Shown one piece after another: positions 1 through 9,107 of a stretch of 64,000 bases of DNA (position 1 is its first letter; each line of letters begins with the position of its first letter). Under the pieces are notes generated by a model. That model did not search any database, was not told where the DNA came from, and worked only from the letters and a program-made list of their open reading frames with translations. The position numbers and the translations under genes were made by a program. Location of the stretch: the NCBI RefSeq assembly GCF_988243305.1, contig NZ_OZ547136.1; one strand, written 5' to 3'.

Positions 1-19
1 ACTACCATTTGTTCTTTTT

Positions 20-733
20 TTAAGCAGTCATCTGATGATATTTTTCCCTGAAGGCTGCCGAGGAGATATTCCCCAGACGAGAGTGACGACGCTGACGATT
101 GTAGAAAATCTCAATGTATTCCCGTATTACTGAGATGGCTTCATCCCGGTTATTAAAACGATAGTGGCTCAGGCTCTCATTTTTCAGCGTTCCCCAGAAG
201 CTTTCCATCGGAGCGTTGTCGTAACAGTTACCTTTACGCGACATTGATGTTTTCAGACCAAACTGCTCCTGTATGACCCGGTAATCGTATGCGCAGTACT
301 GTGAACCTCGATCAGAGTGATGGATTAGCCCGGCAGGTGGGCGCTGGCTCCTGAGCGCCATAAACAGGGCTTTACCTGTCAGCTCTTTTGTCATGTGCTC
401 TCCCATGGCGTAGCCGACAATTTCGCACGTATAAACATCTTTGATGCCAGCGAGGTACAACCATCCCTCCTGTGTGGCAACATACGTCAGGTCCGCCACC
501 CAGACCTGATTTGGTGCTGTAGGAGCGAACGTCTGGTTCAGCAGATTTGGCGCAACTGGCAGATTGTGGTTCGAGTTCGTAGTCGCTCTGAACTTGCGTT
601 TCTGCTTACAGCGTAGCCTTAGCTCCTTACGAAGACGTGCCAGTCGGTCACGACCAACGATGATGCCATTCTCTGCCAGCTCCGTCTGGAGCCGCCGGGT
701 TCCATATGTTTCGCGAGTGCGGATATGTGCCAC
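20..733 (-). CDS. IS3-family transposase OrfB (DDE integrase-core domain); the element is truncated on its orfA side by the adjacent IS1
   Basis: 237-aa ORF with IS3-family OrfB hallmarks (HHSDRGSQY, NAPMESFWGTLK, YNRQRRHSRLG); no intact orfA upstream; IS1 terminus begins 70 bp away. Confidence 0.8.
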   Translation of the reverse strand: MAHIRTRETYGTRRLQTELAENGIIVGRDRLARLRKELRLRCKQKRKFRATTNSNHNLPVAPNLLNQTFAPTAPNQVWVADLTYVATQEGWLYLAGIKDVYTCEIVGYAMGEHMTKELTGKALFMALRSQRPPAGLIHHSDRGSQYCAYDYRVIQEQFGLKTSMSRKGNCYDNAPMESFWGTLKNESLSHYRFNNRDEAISVIREYIEIFYNRQRRHSRLGNISSAAFREKYHQMTA

Positions 734-818
734 CTTAATCTCCAGTTTTAGCCGCTCATCACTTTAGTTTTCTGTCTGAGGGTTCATGCTGTACCCAGTT
801 GTAGGTGATGACTCCAAC

Positions 819-1322
819 TTACTGATAGTGTTTTATGTTCAGATAATGCCCGATGACCTTGTCATGCAGCTCCACCGATTTTGAGAACGACAGTGACTTC
901 CGTCCCAGCCTTGCCAGATGTTGTCTCAGATTCAGATTATGTCGCTCAATGCGCTGAGTGTAACGCTTGCTGATAACGTGCAGCTTTCCCTTCAGGCGTG
1001 ATTCATACAGCGGCCAGCCATCCGTCATCCATACCACGACCTCAAAGGCCGACAGCAGGCTCAGAAGACGCTCCAGTGTGGCCAGAGTGCGTTCACCGAA
1101 GACGTGCGCCACAACCGTCCTCCGTATCCTGTCATACGCGTAAAACAGCCAGCGCTGACGTGATTTAGCACCGACGTAGCCCCACTGTTCGTCCATTTCA
1201 GCGCAGACAATCACATCACTGCCCGGTTGTATGCGCGAGGTTACCGACTGCGGCCTGAGTTTTTTAAGTGACGTAAAACCGTGTTGAGGCCAACGCCCAT
1301 AATGCGTGCACTGGCGCGACAT
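819..1322 (-). CDS. insB: IS1 transposase InsB
   Basis: 167-aa ORF matching IS1 InsB as recalled ([92 protein letters not shown]). Confidence 0.9.
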
Positions 1323-1516
1323 CCGACGCCATTCATGGCCATATCAATGATTTTCTGGTGCTTACCGGGCTGAGAGGCGGTGTAAGTGAACTGTAGTTGC
1401 CATGTTTTACGGCAAGGAGAGCAGAGATAGCGCTGATGTCCGGCAGTGCTTTTGCCGTTACGCACCACGCCTTCAGTAGCGGAGCAGGAAGGACATCTGA
1501 TGGAAATGGAAGCCAC
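1241..1516 (-). CDS. insA: IS1 InsA
   Basis: 91-aa [46 protein letters not shown], the expected InsA. Confidence 0.9.
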
Positions 1517-1753
1517 GCAAGCACCTTAAAATCACCATCATACACTAAATCAGTAAGTTGGCAGCATTACCAGAAAATGATAAGGTAAACATTGAAAAGC
1601 AGCCGACTGATGACTGTTTTTTATAGTTGCATTTTTATTTTTTGTTATTTTCATTTATATTCCCTTACTTGTCGTTTAAAATTCTTCTATATAACAGGAA
1701 GAGGTAACCATAGAATGAACGTTTATTTTCCTGTATCAGAACAGCCATAACTT

Positions 1754-2224
1754 TTATTTTATAGTTGTTATCAGTGAATGAATGCAACCTAATAGAACAA
1801 TGAGGAAAACAATGGAGAAAAAGCGACGGACCGGACGCCATAGTTCATATTCTCGTGTATCAGCCTCACGTATCAACCTTTCTGAAATGGTTTCGGTTTC
1901 TTTTCCTCGCACCAGAATATGTCTGTAATATTTCCTCATGACATATACCGAAAACTGAAACCAGATTAATATGGATGGACACACAACACATAAACTTCTG
2001 ATGATATCACCCGGGAAAGTATCTTGGGCGGGTAAAAGAAAGTCATATACTCTGGATAAAATCATCATCGAGATAAATGAGACGCCAGCACCTATCCAGT
2101 ATTCGATATGAGAAGATGCTGCATTATATGCGTCAGTAAAATTTTTCTTTCTTAATGAAGGTGGAAGTGCTGAAAGTTCAGGAATACGTTTTCTTGTCCA
2201 GTATATTTTCATATAGTAACTCAT
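1754..2224 (-). CDS. hypothetical membrane protein in AT-rich island DNA
   Basis: 156-aa ORF with several hydrophobic stretches; no family recognised. Confidence 0.3.
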   Translation of the reverse strand: MSYYMKIYWTRKRIPELSALPPSLRKKNFTDAYNAASSHIEYWIGAGVSFISMMILSRVYDFLLPAQDTFPGDIIRSLCVVCPSILIWFQFSVYVMRKYYRHILVRGKETETISERLIREADTREYELWRPVRRFFSIVFLIVLLGCIHSLITTIK

Positions 2225-2669
2225 ATAAAAAGTGTTCTACTTTACTATGATGATGACGATTTATAAAAGGCTTATAATGACTACTTCTCCTTTCATTCTC
2301 GAATTTCACGATAATGATAGAGATAATCATTATCAATTGATAGTATCAGTAATTTTGACTTACATCACACTTTCATGGTTTAATCAGGTGATTGATTTAA
2401 TGAAAAGAGTGTGTTTGTGGATGTATTGTGTATATGTCTTACCGGGCATCTGTTCTTACATTAATTAATATATTGCTATTTAAGTATTGGTAGTATTGTC
2501 AGTAACATTCTTTTGGTTAATTTAGTTATTATTCCTCACTGATTAATTGTCCTTCCGTTCTTATTGTTTGTAACTTGTGTTTGTATCGTACCTTTCAGGT
2601 GTTGATGCGCGCTTTACTGTGTCTGCACCGGCTTGACAAAATTCAACAGGGGTTGAAAAGGAACATTTC

Positions 2670-3179
2670 GTGCAAATAACCGAAGCCTTAATTTCAGAGC
2701 CGGGGGAAATCCGGCGTTTTGTTCAGCAGGCGGTGGACCACTGGCCAAATCTGTTGGCATTTCACTTCACGCTCTATTCGGCAGAAGGAATCTATGGTCA
2801 ACAGATTCAGACATTTTGTAGTTCCTTTCACCGACGGGTACACGAACGTATTACGGAGCATAATCACACGGTCAGCCCATCAGCGCCGGTGGTATTACGC
2901 TGGTTGCGGGAACAACATGAAGGAGCACAGATACGATGTCTGTTGCTGCTCAGCCAGACGAGTATTTGCCATCCGCGAGTCGGCGTCATGGCTGATGAAG
3001 AATGTGCGCAACTGGTGGATTTACTGCAACAGACCTGGTCGGTGATAAGTGCTGGCGGACAATGCCGGGTGGAAAGATGTTTTCGGGTTGCCCGGCTTGG
3101 TTCATCAGGGCAATACGTGGCGTTAAAAACGGCTGTTCAGTCCTTTATGTCGCAGGTTATTGCAACAATCATCCGGTGA
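2670..3179 (+). CDS. hypothetical island protein
   Basis: 169-aa ORF with normal codon composition; may be the N-terminal part of a gene broken before ORF 3232..3891. Confidence 0.35.
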   Translation: MQITEALISEPGEIRRFVQQAVDHWPNLLAFHFTLYSAEGIYGQQIQTFCSSFHRRVHERITEHNHTVSPSAPVVLRWLREQHEGAQIRCLLLLSQTSICHPRVGVMADEECAQLVDLLQQTWSVISAGGQCRVERCFRVARLGSSGQYVALKTAVQSFMSQVIATIIR

Positions 3180-3231
3180 TTGTCGGGAGGAATATCAATG
3201 CTTCCGTTAATTTTTACTGGCTGATAAAGTT

Positions 3232-3891
3232 TTGTCTGCTGAATCTTTATACGGAATTCCTTTCAGTATGCGTACACGAATTGACTATCTGGCGGATAAA
3301 TACTGTTTTACAGAACGGAACGAATCCCCCCGTCTTCGCCGGCAGTGGCAGGATGTTCTGGAGGAGTGCCGGCAGACAGAGGCCGGGCCAGAAGAACGGT
3401 TGCGTATTGCACTGCTGAATGTGGATTACGTCACCAGTTTTGAACTGCCTTTTCGCTTGCTGCTTACCCGTACACCGCAATTGATTGCCGCGCTGCGTGA
3501 AGAATGGGGCATCAGCCAGAAAAATGTGGTGTTTAACGATAAACGGTTTGGCTGCGTGTACAGCCTGAAGGCCAGCCTTTCTGGTGTGCCGGATACATAC
3601 CGGTATCATCTGTCTCACCGTATTCGTCGCGTGGTTGGGAATGAAAACACATCATTGCCATATCAGCAGGTTGCCCGGGAAGTGAAAGCGCCCCGTGAAC
3701 GGCTGAAGTATGCACTGGAGGCGGGTTTGCTGGTGACTGCACTGGACGGCCTGTTCTGGTTTGGCAGTCAGCGTATTGCGGCTGATGTTCTGAGGCTGAG
3801 AAAGGCCGGAATGCCGGTGGTGACCACGACCGTGGAGGTGCACGATAACCTGACGGGAACAACCCGCAAAGTACCGGCATACCATCTCTGA
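3232..3891 (+). CDS. hypothetical island protein
   Basis: 219-aa ORF, GC-normal; no family recognised. Confidence 0.4.
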   Translation: MSAESLYGIPFSMRTRIDYLADKYCFTERNESPRLRRQWQDVLEECRQTEAGPEERLRIALLNVDYVTSFELPFRLLLTRTPQLIAALREEWGISQKNVVFNDKRFGCVYSLKASLSGVPDTYRYHLSHRIRRVVGNENTSLPYQQVAREVKAPRERLKYALEAGLLVTALDGLFWFGSQRIAADVLRLRKAGMPVVTTTVEVHDNLTGTTRKVPAYHL

Positions 3892-3986
3892 TACAACCAT
3901 CAGGGGGAATATTGCTCTGGCAGCAGCAGTATGACATTCTTTATACTTTATCCCCGTGCCTGAAAACATGTGCTAAGGAAACGGGA

Positions 3987-4220
3987 ATGGCAAGGTCCGA
4001 TTATGATATTATCAATCTGTCTCTGGAACATGAACTGAATGAGTGGCTGGCAGAGAGAGGTTATGCCGGACTGGTGGATAACCGGAATCGCCTGGCAGAA
4101 GTTGTTACCCGCAAATTGCAGGACAGCTTTTATATAAACGTTTCCAGGGATGCGCTGAACACGGCATACAGTGAACACCCGGAGTGGTTTTCTGGGCTTG
4201 TCTCCGGGGATGAGAATTAA
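3987..4220 (+). CDS. small hypothetical protein
   Basis: Internal ATG (MARSDYDIINL) preceded by aaggaaa Shine-Dalgarno; 77 aa. Confidence 0.35.
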   Translation: MARSDYDIINLSLEHELNEWLAERGYAGLVDNRNRLAEVVTRKLQDSFYINVSRDALNTAYSEHPEWFSGLVSGDEN

Positions 4221-4272
4221 TAAGTGGATTATGCTGCTATCAGGTAGTGTGATTGCCGGCAGGGATTTCGTT

Positions 4273-4464
4273 TTATTCTGTTTCTTCCCGGGGTTCGGGT
4301 TTGAATTTTCCCAGAAAGTTGTACATCGGTTGCATGCAGGGATGCGGATAGCCGTCCCGCATAAACACCACCCGGGTTTCCTCAACACTGGTCAGGGTGA
4401 CAAGCGCACCATGATCGTCTTTGTATCGCTGATTGACTTTCGGTAATGGAACATCTTCTGACAT
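4273..4464 (-). CDS. small hypothetical protein
   Basis: 63-aa ORF; no family recognised. Confidence 0.25.
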   Translation of the reverse strand: MSEDVPLPKVNQRYKDDHGALVTLTSVEETRVVFMRDGYPHPCMQPMYNFLGKFKPEPREETE

Positions 4465-5051
4465 AAATTTTAGTACGGTAACAGTTAACTAAATTTTCAT
4501 GTGGTAGCACTGAATCAGGAGACTGCGTTTCCTGATGTGCGCTGTTAATTTTCTGTTTTTACGAAACATTTTCCCCTTCTTCCTGTGTATTTTATTGCGC
4601 TCCTCCTTTCATGTCCTTCCCATATCCTGAAACTCACTTAAATACTGTTGAATCGTCAAACATTGCAACTTTCAATGACTGAAATCAAAAATTGCTATTT
4701 TTTAAGCTAACCAACTGTATTAAAAGCATTCAGTGGAATAATTTTCTGCACTTTTCCAGTAATTATGGTTATAAATTTTGTAATGTGCTGTTTTTGCGAT
4801 ATATGGCAGAATAAAGAACTGTTCATTTGTGTTATATCGATCGATAAATCTGTCATGTTGCTGTAGTTCAGATCATTATTCTATAATGATCAAAATTAAG
4901 TCAATTCTGGCTGGTTTGTTACTCAGCATTCTGGTACCGGTTGATGCGGGTAAATACCGGAAGGGCGGTAGCGTGCCATCGCAAAACATGGTGGGAGGTA
5001 TCGTCAGGAGGCTGGTGATTGTTGGTATGACATGAATAAAAGGTTTTTCGT

Positions 5052-6185
5052 TTGACTGGAAAATTATGTTGCAGGAACGAGAGGACTGAGGAACAAAGCT
5101 TATTCCGGCGCTGTCCGTCCTTGCTGTCACTGACACTGATGTCTGCTTTATTATCGCCTTTATCTCTTCAGGCAGCGGATGTCCGGCGTAGCGGAGATGA
5201 AGCATTTATCATTCAGCAGCAGCGTCAGGAAGCCCTTGAGCAACAACTGACGCCTTCAGCCCCTGATGTTCGCCTTTCTGCACCTGGCTCTTTTGCCCAT
5301 AAGATTAATTTTCCTGTTGAAACGCCCTGTTTTCAGATTAAACAGACGGAACTGAAGGGGGCTGATGCGTTACCACACTGGCTGCCTTTACAAAAAATCG
5401 CCAACGGGGCGGTCGGGCATTGCCTGGGGGCGAAAGGAATTAATCTGCTGATGAGTACATTGCAGAACCGTCTGGTCGATCATGGTTATGTCACCACCCG
5501 TGTTCTGGCACCTTCGCAGGATTTAAAAAGCGGTATCCTCCGGCTGGTCATTATTCCCGGTGTTGTGCGACATGTGCGTCTGACACCGGACAGTGATGAC
5601 TATATTCAGTTGTATTCCTCATTCCCGGCACACGAAGGTTCTCTGCTGGATTTACGGGACATTGAGCAGGGGCTGGATTTAGGTAACAGCCGGATACAGG
5701 GACAACATACTGAGCTGAATGCAACCAGTGGAAATCTGTCTACACAGAATGCGCAACTGAGTGCCGGTACGCTTTCCGCCCGGACTGCCGGGCAGTTCAG
5801 CAGTAATGGCGGTACGATAAATGCCGACACACTGCAGATATCGGCACAAAGCCTGTCAAATCGTAAAGGCAGTCTGATTCAGACGGGAACAGGGGATTTT
5901 TCGCTGAGTCTGCCGGGAAGCGTGGATAACCGGGAAGGGCTGCTTGCGGCAAATGGCGCGGTGCGTCTGGATGCACTGAGCCTTGATAATCGCAAGGGGA
6001 AAGTGCAGGCGGAGCAGTCACCCTCCCTTCAGAAATCCCCGCCCACGTTTCTGAAACCGTTTGTGGCTGGTGTCTGTGCGGCATTGCTGGCGGTCAGCGT
6101 GGCTATTCCGGGATGGCAGTTTCTGACACAGCCATCACCGGAGGAGCAGCATTTTACCTGGGGGAATGGTTGTAAAAAGCAGTGA
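5052..6185 (+). pseudogene. Two-partner-secretion remnant: TpsB (CdiB/ShlB/FhaC-like) N-terminal POTRA-like segment fused in frame to a hemagglutinin-type repeat fragment (CdiA/TpsA-like); far shorter than an intact TpsB or TpsA
   Basis: N-terminal part resembles TpsB transporters ([27 protein letters not shown]); C-terminal part is Ser/Gly/Asn/Leu-rich repeat text typical of filamentous hemagglutinin/CdiA; 377 aa total. Confidence 0.5.
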
Positions 6186-6425
6186 AAACAGTAAATACAG
6201 AGTATCGTGATGAATTAGTGCTCAGGGGCTACCAGTATTCAATAACCAGCGTATCGGCATCGCATTCCTGTAATTCTGGTATTGACTGTTATGACTAAAT
6301 TCAATGTATATATGGCAGGCAGAAATATGTTAACAGTCCCGGAGTTGTGGAAAATCCTCCGGAGCTAATATCGGGAGTGCCTTAACAATTTTCCGTAAGT
6401 TAAATGATAATTTCTGAGTGAGAAT

Positions 6426-9107
6426 ATGGTCACGATTTGTGTTGACGGTGAAAATAAGACTCATAAAATTACCGACTGGACGCTGTGGGCTGGAAATGAC
6501 GACAGAGAGGTTATGCTGACCTGTCATTTTCGCAGCGGGAGAAAATATACTCGTCCGCTTTCTGTATGTCAGATAACGCCAACTGTAAATTTGCGAAATG
6601 TTTTCCTCGAAAGGAAAGGGAACGCTGTAACATCCCGGGCTGAACTGGTTATTATATATGGTGATAAATATGCTGCTGTTTATTACCGCGAGGGTGAACG
6701 ACCCTACATCATGAAAACGACCGGCCTTGACTTTCAACAGTGTTCAGCATTTACAGAGCATGCCGTGTTTAATTACTTGTGTAGGGTGGCTAATGAACGT
6801 ATTTTTTATGCCCGTGGTAATAACAGAAATATCGATGAGAATATCCTTAGGCAGATAAAGAAAATAGTTCCTCATCCGGATACCGCCTTGCATGCATACT
6901 GTTCAGGACAGAGTAAAAAACGTGATTCGCCATGGGGTTTGATTTTTCCGTTTGGTCTTAATGAAAGTCAGTTGCTGGCTGTCAAACGGGCATTTTCCTC
7001 ACAGATTTCAGTTATTGAAGGACCACCTGGAACAGGTAAAACACAGACTATACTCAATATTGTTGCTAATATATTAATTCAGAATAAAACAGTGGCAATT
7101 TTGTCCAATAATAACTCAGCTGTCAGTAATGTTTATGAAAAGATGGACAAACAGCAACTGGGATATGTGATGGCACGACTGGGGAGTACGGAGAACAGGC
7201 AACAGTTTTTTTCAACGTCGATTTCGCGTTCTGAGGAAGTCTTACCTGACTCACCGTCTGCAAATGCGATTGATGATGTACTTCAACAAGTGAAAAAACA
7301 CCTGAATGCCATTAACCAGGTCGCTTCGTTAAAAGCAGAAATTAATGAGCTGAATATTGAGTATAAATACCTGCAGCAATGGCAGAGTCAGAATCTTCGA
7401 CCGGAGGAGCTTTTTTCTCACAAATACCGATTTTCCTCACAAAAAACAACCGACCTGATGGCTTATATTCATTACCTTTCTGACAGGCGGATTGGATTCA
7501 GAAACAGAATTGATTTGTTGTTAAACTTCATGATACTGAAAGTCAAACCATTGATGATTCCGGAGAGAAGGCTGGCGCTATTTACTTCTCTTCAGCTTTC
7601 TTATTATGAAAAAAATATCCGGGAAAAACAAATTTCTCTGAATGAATATGAGGAAGTATTTAAAAAATCTGATTTTAAAATTTTACTGGGGCGCCTGACA
7701 TCATGGTCTATGCTTTATTTAAAGCAACATCTGCGAAGAAATGTTTCAACAAGAAGTTCATTCTCGGCAGAGACATACAGGGATGAATTTGACCGTTTTA
7801 TAAAGCGTTTTCCGATTATTGGTAGCAGTACGCATTCGATTATTAACTCTATCGGCAAGGGGGCCCTTCTTGATTATGTTATTATTGATGAAGCCTCGCA
7901 GCAGGATATTGTTCCGGGCATTCTGGGACTGGGATGTGCCCGTAATGTAATCGTTGTAGGGGATCGTAAGCAACTTCCACATGTTCCTGTATTACTCCCG
8001 AACAGCCCATCTCCACCGGCAGAATACTATAATTGTGAGAAATATAGTCTACTTGATTCGGTTTGTATGTTGTTCAGGAACATGGTGCCAGTAACCCTTC
8101 TTAAAGAGCATTATCGTTGTCATCCTAAAATCATTCAATTTTGTAATAAGCAGTTTTATGATAATGCTCTGATACCGTTAACGGTTGATTCCGGTGAAGC
8201 CTCATTATCTCTGGTCATCACGGCAAAAGGAAACCATACCCGTAATTTTTCAAATCTCAGGGAGCTTGAATCTCTGGAAGGTCATTACTGGGATGAAGAA
8301 AGTAGCAGGGGATACATTGCCCCATATAATGCACAGGTTAATCTGGCTGAAAAAGTGCTGCCTGCTGATTTTGTGAAATCGACGGTGCATAAATTTCAGG
8401 GACGGGAGTGCGATGAAATTGTGTTTTCCACTGTGCTGGATAAGAAGCGCAGCAGCCAGCACAGTCGGAACATCGCGTTTGTTGATAATCCTGAACTGGT
8501 GAATGTCGCTGTTTCAAGGGCCCGAAATAAATTTACGCTGGTGACTGGTAATGATGTATTTGAACGCCACGCTGGACATATTGCGGCGCTGATTCGTTAC
8601 ATCAAATACTACGCTGATGACGGAGAGATTTTCGAGAGCCCGGTCATATCAGCATTTGATTTGCTGTACAGTGAGTATGACAAATCACTGGAACGACTGA
8701 ATAGTAGATTGAATTCAAATGATTCACACTTTAAGTCAGAACAGATTGTGGCCTGCCTGTTGCGGGATATCCTGTCGCAGGATAGTTATCGGAGTATGAT
8801 GTTTCATTCACAAATAGCGCTGAATCAGTTGGTGTTGCTGGAGCGGGGGGATTTTACACACCGTGAACAGTTATTCATGCGTAACCGGGCCAGTTGTGAC
8901 TTTGTTGTTTACTATAAGGTCGGGAAGACTCCATTAGGGGTTATTGAAGTGGATGGAGGTTATCATCTGACCAGTGTTCAGGCTGAACGTGATGAACTTA
9001 AAAACAGTATACTGAAGAAATGCGGCCTGCCATTGCTAAGATTACGTACTATAGACAGTGATATAGAAGGGAAGTTGGGAGCGTTTCTGTCAGGCCTGAC
9101 AGGCTAA
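6426..9107 (+). CDS. Superfamily-1 (Upf1/DNA2-like, AAA_11/AAA_12 type) helicase with unknown ~170-aa N-terminal domain and a C-terminal restriction-endonuclease-like domain; candidate phage-defence helicase-nuclease
   Basis: Walker A GPPGTGKT (nt 7020..7043), Walker B VIIDEASQ, helicase motifs VVGDRKQLPHV, KFQGRECDEIVFS, VAVSRARNKFTLV; C-terminal CDFVVYY...IEVDGGYH...ERDELK resembles a PD-(D/E)xK-type fold. Confidence 0.8.
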   Translation: MVTICVDGENKTHKITDWTLWAGNDDREVMLTCHFRSGRKYTRPLSVCQITPTVNLRNVFLERKGNAVTSRAELVIIYGDKYAAVYYREGERPYIMKTTGLDFQQCSAFTEHAVFNYLCRVANERIFYARGNNRNIDENILRQIKKIVPHPDTALHAYCSGQSKKRDSPWGLIFPFGLNESQLLAVKRAFSSQISVIEGPPGTGKTQTILNIVANILIQNKTVAILSNNNSAVSNVYEKMDKQQLGYVMARLGSTENRQQFFSTSISRSEEVLPDSPSANAIDDVLQQVKKHLNAINQVASLKAEINELNIEYKYLQQWQSQNLRPEELFSHKYRFSSQKTTDLMAYIHYLSDRRIGFRNRIDLLLNFMILKVKPLMIPERRLALFTSLQLSYYEKNIREKQISLNEYEEVFKKSDFKILLGRLTSWSMLYLKQHLRRNVSTRSSFSAETYRDEFDRFIKRFPIIGSSTHSIINSIGKGALLDYVIIDEASQQDIVPGILGLGCARNVIVVGDRKQLPHVPVLLPNSPSPPAEYYNCEKYSLLDSVCMLFRNMVPVTLLKEHYRCHPKIIQFCNKQFYDNALIPLTVDSGEASLSLVITAKGNHTRNFSNLRELESLEGHYWDEESSRGYIAPYNAQVNLAEKVLPADFVKSTVHKFQGRECDEIVFSTVLDKKRSSQHSRNIAFVDNPELVNVAVSRARNKFTLVTGNDVFERHAGHIAALIRYIKYYADDGEIFESPVISAFDLLYSEYDKSLERLNSRLNSNDSHFKSEQIVACLLRDILSQDSYRSMMFHSQIALNQLVLLERGDFTHREQLFMRNRASCDFVVYYKVGKTPLGVIEVDGGYHLTSVQAERDELKNSILKKCGLPLLRLRTIDSDIEGKLGAFLSGLTG

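Follow-up and report, generated by a model that had tools for sequence, protein, structure and literature searches.

Architecture of the chimeric reading frame

The subject of this analysis is a single open reading frame (ORF) at positions 5052–6185 of a 64,000-nucleotide stretch of Escherichia coli DNA (NCBI RefSeq assembly GCF_988243305.1, contig NZ_OZ547136.1; hereafter the window). A first-pass annotation had described it as one 377-residue frame in which the POTRA-containing start of a two-partner-secretion (TPS) transporter, TpsB, is joined to filamentous haemagglutinin (FHA) repeats and a hydrophobic tail, and had taken it for the scar of a deleted contact-dependent inhibition (CDI) locus. 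Pfam and NCBIfam searches and hydropathy bear out this layout, and comparison with other E. coli loci resolves the frame into pieces of three genes: cdiB and cdiA of a class IV cdiB-cdiC-cdiA-cdiI locus, and a vasL-family gene of a type VI secretion system (T6SS). The comparison loci, with the labels under which their coordinates are given, are from strains 25-07233 (L002 and L004, the latter on NZ_CM147700.1), ESY001 (L003, NZ_CP086342.1), 219 (L005), CFSAN061769 (L006), CE0007a (L007), STEC308 (L008) and 1105 (L009). The pieces and the three junctions (J1, J2 and J3) are as follows.

5052–6185, + strand: chimeric ORF, at most 377 residues, counted from the first in-frame TTG; stop codon at 6183–6185
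5052–5677, + strand: 5′ fragment of cdiB, CdiB codons 1–209 (tblastn, 95.7% amino-acid identity)
5667–5677, + strand: J1, an 11-nt microhomology, CAGGGGCTGGA, common to cdiB and cdiA
5678–6020, + strand: internal fragment of cdiA, CdiA codons ~440–554 of 3,021, with FHA-1 beta-helix repeats from just past the TPS domain
6019–6020 (break at 6020/6021), + strand: J2, where cdiA meets the vasL-family gene through two shared nucleotides (CA) and both parental frames are kept
6021–6151, + strand: fragment of the vasL-family gene in its native frame; transmembrane helix at nt ~6057–6122
6151/6152, + strand: J3, where 896 bp are missing relative to L009, comprising the VasL C-terminal domain and a spacer of ~320 bp

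The RefSeq gene call in this frame begins at the ATG at 5139 and yields 348 residues (WP_001335711.1, "POTRA domain-containing protein"); the likely starts are this ATG or the UUG at 5121. The latter corresponds to the start that has been argued for in the homologous class IV cdiB, a UUG lying 18 nt ahead of the ATG used in its annotation (PMC8510554). Kyte-Doolittle hydropathy places a signal-peptide core at residues ~22–41, followed by SLQA/AD, and intact CdiB has the same N-terminus. After an N-terminal helix and linker come POTRA1 (nt 5331–5561), where POTRA_2 is matched completely at residues 94–170 (E=1.3e-22), and a truncated POTRA2 (nt 5565–5678), where POTRA_3 is matched at residues 172–209 over profile positions 2–40 of 56 (E=5e-9). 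In an intact CdiB relative the same Pfam profile is matched over positions 2–56; it is incomplete in the chimera because J1 cuts it. The CdiB structures 6WIM (E=1.8e-15) and 6WIL (E=2.4e-9) likewise align to the N-terminal part of the ORF.

The C-terminal half carries the filamentous-haemagglutinin 20-residue repeat TIGR01731 at residues ~279–314 (NCBIfam; E=4.5e-11 when the whole ORF is searched, 2e-12 when this half is searched alone) and a strong hydrophobic helix at residues ~336–357, again by Kyte-Doolittle hydropathy. The frame then continues past the vasL piece for ~10 codons, within DNA that lies upstream of the next gene. Pfam finds in the ORF no match to the 16-stranded ShlB barrel (PF03865) and neither the ESPR signal peptide nor the TPS secretion domain, the retained CdiA slice beginning at residue ~437; the ImpA_N and VasL C-terminal domains are absent as well, the transmembrane segment alone being kept. 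The receptor-binding domain, FHA-2, PT-VENN, a toxin and cdiI have no match in either the ORF or the 64-kb window by Pfam and tblastn.

An intact class IV locus identifies the parents

The intact counterpart that we used as the main reference lies in L004, where it adjoins a Zorya system and all four genes are continuous ORFs.

cdiB: 579 residues from TTG or 550 from ATG; POTRA_2, POTRA_3 and ShlB barrel
cdiC: 175 residues; HlyC-type lysyl acyltransferase (HlyC domain)
cdiA: 3,021 residues; ESPR at 1–37, TPS at 68–330, FHA repeats, PT-VENN
cdiI: 124 residues; CdiI_ImmP

The intact CdiB has POTRA_3 at 172–225 and ShlB at 230–543 (E=2e-109), with the VRGF motif carried in NRWTVRGFDGE. Among E. 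coli cdi loci, only those of class IV have cdiC as a cistron placed between cdiB and cdiA (PMC8510554), so that the deleted CDI locus surmised in the first-pass annotation can be specified as a class IV cdiBCAI locus with its HlyC-type cdiC.

Compared separately, the two halves of the frame match different TPS partners from a single intact locus: CdiB 1–209 in one case and CdiA ~437–554 in the other. The outcome that would have refuted the first-pass reading, both halves aligning to one contiguous family, was thus not obtained. With the J1 repeat included, the cdiA-derived stretch spans window 5667–6020, and the cdiA fragment is 97.5–98.9% identical in DNA to L004 6609–6963 and L006 20094–20448. 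DNA identities of 95–98% to real cdiB and cdiA exclude a chance resemblance. Intact TpsB and TpsA are missing, as had been noted: tblastn with intact CdiB, CdiC, CdiA and CdiI against the 64-kb window matches the chimeric ORF alone. The cdiC gene is thus deleted in the window by tblastn and present in L004 and L006, from which the window segments differ by 1–5%. These comparisons support descent of the cdi parts of the ORF from a class IV locus, of which the ORF itself would not be a working member.

Synteny points the same way. The left flank of the window (an ECs1377-family gene, a hypothetical gene and DUF4222) is also the left flank of the L006 locus, where it is followed by cdiB-cdiC-cdiA, interrupted by IS21, and later by perC. 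Therefore, the scar occupies the place that a whole cdi locus holds in other strains.

Three junctions join three genes

The window tracks cdiB up to 5677 and cdiA from 5666/5667 onward, which places J1 on the 11-nt repeat. Relative to L004, 2,985 bp are lost here, comprising the remainder of cdiB, the entire cdiC and cdiA codons 1 to ~436; because the loss amounts to 995 whole codons, the join is in frame.

The hydrophobic tail was correctly recognized in the first-pass annotation, but it is not derived from a TPS partner. The segment 6021–6151 is 91–96% identical to L003 14001–14133, L008 15686–15818 and L009 4972–5104. The L003 ORF at 13751–14674 reads the same peptide as the window tail, carries a VasL match in Pfam (E=5e-29) and follows an ImpA_N ORF; in STEC308 (L008) and strain 1105 (L009), a complete T6SS cluster ends with the vasL-family gene. 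Since this segment lies in the same frame inside a VasL-family ORF elsewhere, sequence comparison identifies the tail as the transmembrane helix encoded by a T6SS gene of the VasL family, fused at J2 without loss of frame. A further piece of cdiB had been a candidate for the tail, suggested by the RefSeq label "ShlB/FhaC/HecB" on L003 14003–14131; it was rejected, as this segment belongs to the VasL-family ORF, in which it separates the domain calls for ImpA_N and VasL. The reasoning behind the label is circular: the vasL fragment bears it because the chimera has been deposited more than 1,000 times under such names.

Downstream of J3, window 6152–6377 matches L009 6001–6223 and window 6367–9200 matches L009 6298–9131. 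It is by coincidence that J1 and J2 each keep the frame, and so a single 377-codon frame runs across three genes.

The flanks of the scar

The first-pass annotation had proposed that orphan immunity or toxin-tip modules might survive in the unannotated flanks. Both flanks prove to be native upstream regions instead.

4563–5051, + strand: native upstream (promoter/leader) region of class IV cdiB, 95.4% identical to L004 2513–3009
6152–6425, + strand: native upstream intergenic region of the SF1-helicase/DUF2726 gene, matched in L009

L004 2513–3009 lies directly upstream of the intact cdiB, in an unrelated genomic context beside Zorya; therefore, 4563–5051 is part of the cdi module. Neither flank gave Pfam matches to orphan modules, and among the small ORFs in and near both flanks no Pfam family was found except in the already annotated DUF4222 gene. 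No orphan toxin or immunity module was detected in the flanks by Pfam and tblastn, a scan that is blind to a highly divergent, unclassified immunity gene of fewer than 40 residues.

A small annotated ORF in the left flank (4886–5035, + strand, 49 residues, hydrophobic N-terminus) has a counterpart, likewise annotated, at L004 2865–2993 and travels with the cdi module into genomic contexts that are unrelated; it has no Pfam match.

Distribution and independent decay

All counts were made among 5,426 complete E. coli genomes. J1 is present in 491 of them (~9%), J2 in 496 and J3 in 626. Some part of the cdiB 5′ end occurs in 1,280 genomes, and most of the cdiB-cdiC-5′ cdiA region in 190. J3 is probably the oldest of the three junctions, because it is also found without cdi pieces, for example in L007. 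The window is 100% identical to strain 190693 and others.

Other strains have lost the locus by different deletions. In strain 219 (L005) cdiB nt 437 is joined out of frame to the VasL domain; cdiB nt 129 is joined to an insertion sequence (IS) remnant in ESY001 (L003) and to mid-ImpA_N in CE0007a (L007). These three variants leave cdiB stubs of only 20–116 residues. In the O157:H7 strain OK1, a copy of IS1203 removes the 5′ end of the chimera itself.

By the Nei-Gojobori method, the ratio of nonsynonymous to synonymous substitution rates (dN/dS) between the relic and L004 or L006 is 0.22–0.45 for the cdiB part, as compared with 0.13 between intact alleles; these values stand on 1–10 substitutions per class (7 versus 2 nonsynonymous changes), too few to tell relaxed from purifying selection, and we do not use them as evidence.

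In some O157:H7 genomes the chimera coexists with a full-length class IV cdi locus. NZ_CP038321.1 (O157:H7 NE1127) contains the relic at 3278812–3279460 and a full-length cdiB-cdiC-5′ cdiA region at 3692531–3697231, ~414 kb apart; in the near-identical L002, the full locus stands beside Zorya I and a type I restriction system. In NZ_CP048934.1, a genome identical to the window, the cdiB 5′ region is matched in two places.

A probable pseudogene scar and its alternatives

We conclude, with a probability of about 0.93, that the ORF is the pseudogene scar of a class IV cdiB-cdiC-cdiA-cdiI locus that decayed within a serX-integrated genomic island. In the proposed course of events, the neighbouring vasL-family T6SS gene would have been cut at J3 just past its transmembrane helix, with 896 bp gone. 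At J2, cdiA codon ~554 would have been joined to the vasL helix via the 2-nt homology, at the cost of the receptor-binding domain, FHA-2, the toxin and cdiI; at J1, cdiB codon 209 would have been joined to cdiA codon ~437 via the 11-nt repeat, at the cost of the barrel, cdiC and the signal peptide and TPS domain of cdiA. Replication slippage or illegitimate recombination at microhomology may have produced these deletions. The product, if made, would be Sec-exported and would consist of POTRA1, about two thirds of POTRA2, a beta-helix repeat stretch of ~115 residues and, at the C-terminus, a membrane helix. Having no beta-barrel and no TPS domain, it should therefore be capable neither of partner transport nor of its own secretion, and it is predicted to have no toxin or immunity function. 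The chimera is dispensable in some strains, being cut by IS1203 in OK1 and absent from lineage II O157 (PMC1890555). The anatomy of the ORF, its junctions, its parents and its distribution are observed directly; that the chimera is non-functional is most likely.

Several observations count against this reading. Searches of the complete genomes with synthetic intermediate queries found none with J1 only or J2 only, and an arrangement with an intact cdiA upstream of vasL was not recovered. The chimeric allele is kept at 99.7–100% identity in ~9% of complete genomes from several serogroups, it retains the native cdiB upstream region and signal peptide, and J1 and J2 both preserve the frame, although this last point is weak, the chance of it being ~1 in 9.

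The same frame-preserving junctions, the retained upstream region and signal peptide, and the near invariance of the allele in ~491 genomes of diverse serogroups would also suit an expressed and functional protein, periplasmic and anchored in the inner membrane, whose POTRA and beta-helix parts bind TPS domains or incoming class IV CdiA. Such a protein could serve as a decoy, a resistance factor or an envelope anchor, or could modulate a second two-partner system of its own cell, and the co-occurrence of relic and full-length class IV locus in some O157:H7 genomes makes a partner possible; if this were true, the scar would be a domesticated fragment rather than dead DNA. We consider it very improbable. 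POTRA2 breaks off at profile position 40 of 56, the 115 FHA residues are an arbitrary excerpt, and the last ~10 codons are intergenic read-through. The ORF is interrupted in OK1 and missing from lineage II O157, the sister deletion variants are out of frame and leave short stubs, and recent spread of the island explains the high identity equally well. A scan of 4450–6450 for promoters and terminators found no sigma-70-like site on the + strand upstream of the ORF, but its match count was no higher than in shuffled sequence, so that it says little about expression.

It is less probable still that the ORF truly represents a short form of a single contiguous protein family, with no fusion behind it. 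Database holdings lend this a superficial appeal: the protein cluster to which the chimera belongs has 1,082 members on more than 1,000 contigs under POTRA domain-containing and ShlB/FhaC/HecB names, and the O157 copy is listed in the literature as a "HecB-like protein". However, the listed cluster members are all the same E. coli allele or its fragments, the defining ShlB barrel is absent, and the three segments are 91–99% identical in DNA to three genes that lie apart elsewhere, with sharp junctions; the junction mapping refutes a single-family origin. Finally, mis-assembly happens easily at FHA repeats and in IS-rich islands, but an assembly or sequencing artefact joining non-adjacent repeats is barely conceivable and is refuted by the recurrence of the same junctions in 491–496 independently sequenced complete genomes.

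The O157:H7 copy and a probable effect of the chimera on annotation

By gene order, ECs1382 (Z1640) of O157 Sakai, the "HecB-like protein" of SpLE1 (OI-43,48), is the same gene as the chimera: the match is based on the order ECs1377, 1378, 1379, IS, ECs1382, ..., pchD/perC and on the "ECs1377 family" name of the upstream gene, and O157:H7 genomes have junctions identical to those of the window. ECs1382 lies within a 10.8-kb segment missing from the lineage II O157 strain FRIK 920 (PMC1890555) and has been tabulated among virulence-related genes (PMC2323221). Neither paper mentions a chimeric or truncated nature alongside the "HecB-like protein" name, and our literature searches for an earlier description found only such listings. 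ECs1382/Z1640 is a chimera without a barrel and does not belong among the factors for secretion or haemolysin activation.

The chimera also seems to act as misleading protein evidence, on account of which RefSeq breaks up intact cdiB and cdiA into pieces wrongly called pseudogenes; the pieces have borders that coincide with the segments of the chimera. The continuous cdiB of both L004 and L006 is represented in RefSeq as a "POTRA domain-containing protein" pseudogene plus a 359-residue "ShlB/FhaC/HecB" protein starting at an internal Met, and the continuous cdiA of L004 as three pieces (the affected regions are L004 3010–14367 and L006 16582–18234). The middle cdiA piece, L004 6610–6996, is the chimera's slice extended ~30 nt past the J2 end; in L006 the same slice of cdiA is itself named "POTRA domain-containing protein". 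The split pattern recurs in 40 of 40 rows among the matches listed.

Surveys that rely on such annotation will therefore underestimate how many functional class IV CDI loci there are. At the same time, the system is often lost despite the proposed self-policing of CDI loci: of the 1,280 genomes with some cdiB 5′ end, 190 keep most of the region, and at least three different deletions are seen. As the ordinary decay of a known toxin-delivery system, the scar carries little mechanistic weight; its relevance lies mainly in its prevalence and in its effect on annotation.

Genomic island context

The chimera lies in an E. coli genomic island whose end is marked by a tRNA-Ser gene (~24836–24923), next to ghrA and the csg operon; this is the serX site. 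Among the island's genes are perC and relatives of ibrA/ibrB, and such genes have been placed in the serX-inserted tellurite/adherence island (PMC7649339). The immediate neighbour of the chimera is the following gene.

6426–9107, + strand: SF1 helicase (AAA_11/AAA_12) with C-terminal DUF2726, 893 residues

The similarity of this helicase to Mokosh MkoA/MkoC is confined to the helicase core, and the gene is split in O157:H7 OK1. The slot that it occupies, between vasL and ibrAB, holds Zorya II in STEC308 and a KAP NTPase with Qat in strain 219. Because its contents vary in this way, the slot is likely a defence-gene hotspot.

Other parts of the island are heavily scarred by insertion sequences: window 1–1700 and 12800–14400 contain an IS600 fragment, IS1F, a CPBP protease fragment, and IS66 and integrase fragments. 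In CE0007a (L007) the same IS1/IS600/dcu junction lies on the opposite side of ibrA, which implies an IS-mediated inversion or deletion. Across ~9608–12476 and ~15957–24923 the window carries the ibrA/ibrB-like genes (PAPS-reductase-like and IbrB), perC, an Ag43/Cah autotransporter, antirestriction and DUF932 genes, and cbtA/cbeA toxin-antitoxin genes; IbrA has weak similarity to the PAPS-reductase domains of BrxP and DndC.

Comparison with known systems

The closest known system is class IV cdiBCAI, represented by CdiB/CdiC/CdiA-STEC4 of E. coli STEC_O31 (Halvorsen et al. 2021, PMC8510554). In DNA, the two cdi-derived segments of the ORF are 95–99% identical to cdiB and cdiA of loci ordered cdiB-cdiC-cdiA-cdiI, and the ORF shares with them the upstream region and the unusual start context of cdiB, a UUG 18 nt before the ATG. 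Unlike these loci, it keeps only CdiB 1–209 and CdiA ~437–554, with which contact-dependent inhibition is not possible. The class IV receptor-binding domain, which in CdiA-STEC4 contains the acylated Lys1467 and recognizes the lipopolysaccharide core, belongs to the region deleted in the window.

Against the TpsB/Omp85 structures (CdiB 6WIM and 6WIL; FhaC 4QKY and 3NJT), the chimera aligns from the N-terminus across POTRA1 and the greater part of POTRA2, whereas the 16-stranded barrel and the conserved loop-6 VRGF motif are missing. With the VasL/ImpA_N T6SS accessory proteins (PF06812 and PF12486) it shares the transmembrane segment in its native frame, which forms the tail, but neither the ImpA_N nor the VasL C-terminal domain. 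As a product of rearrangement and decay it is typical of cdi loci on genomic islands and resembles orphan cdiA-CT/cdiI modules and other decayed cdi loci. In contrast to the orphan modules, which keep the toxin tip and the immunity gene, the chimera keeps the opposite end of the system, namely the 5′ part of the transporter gene and the proximal filament.

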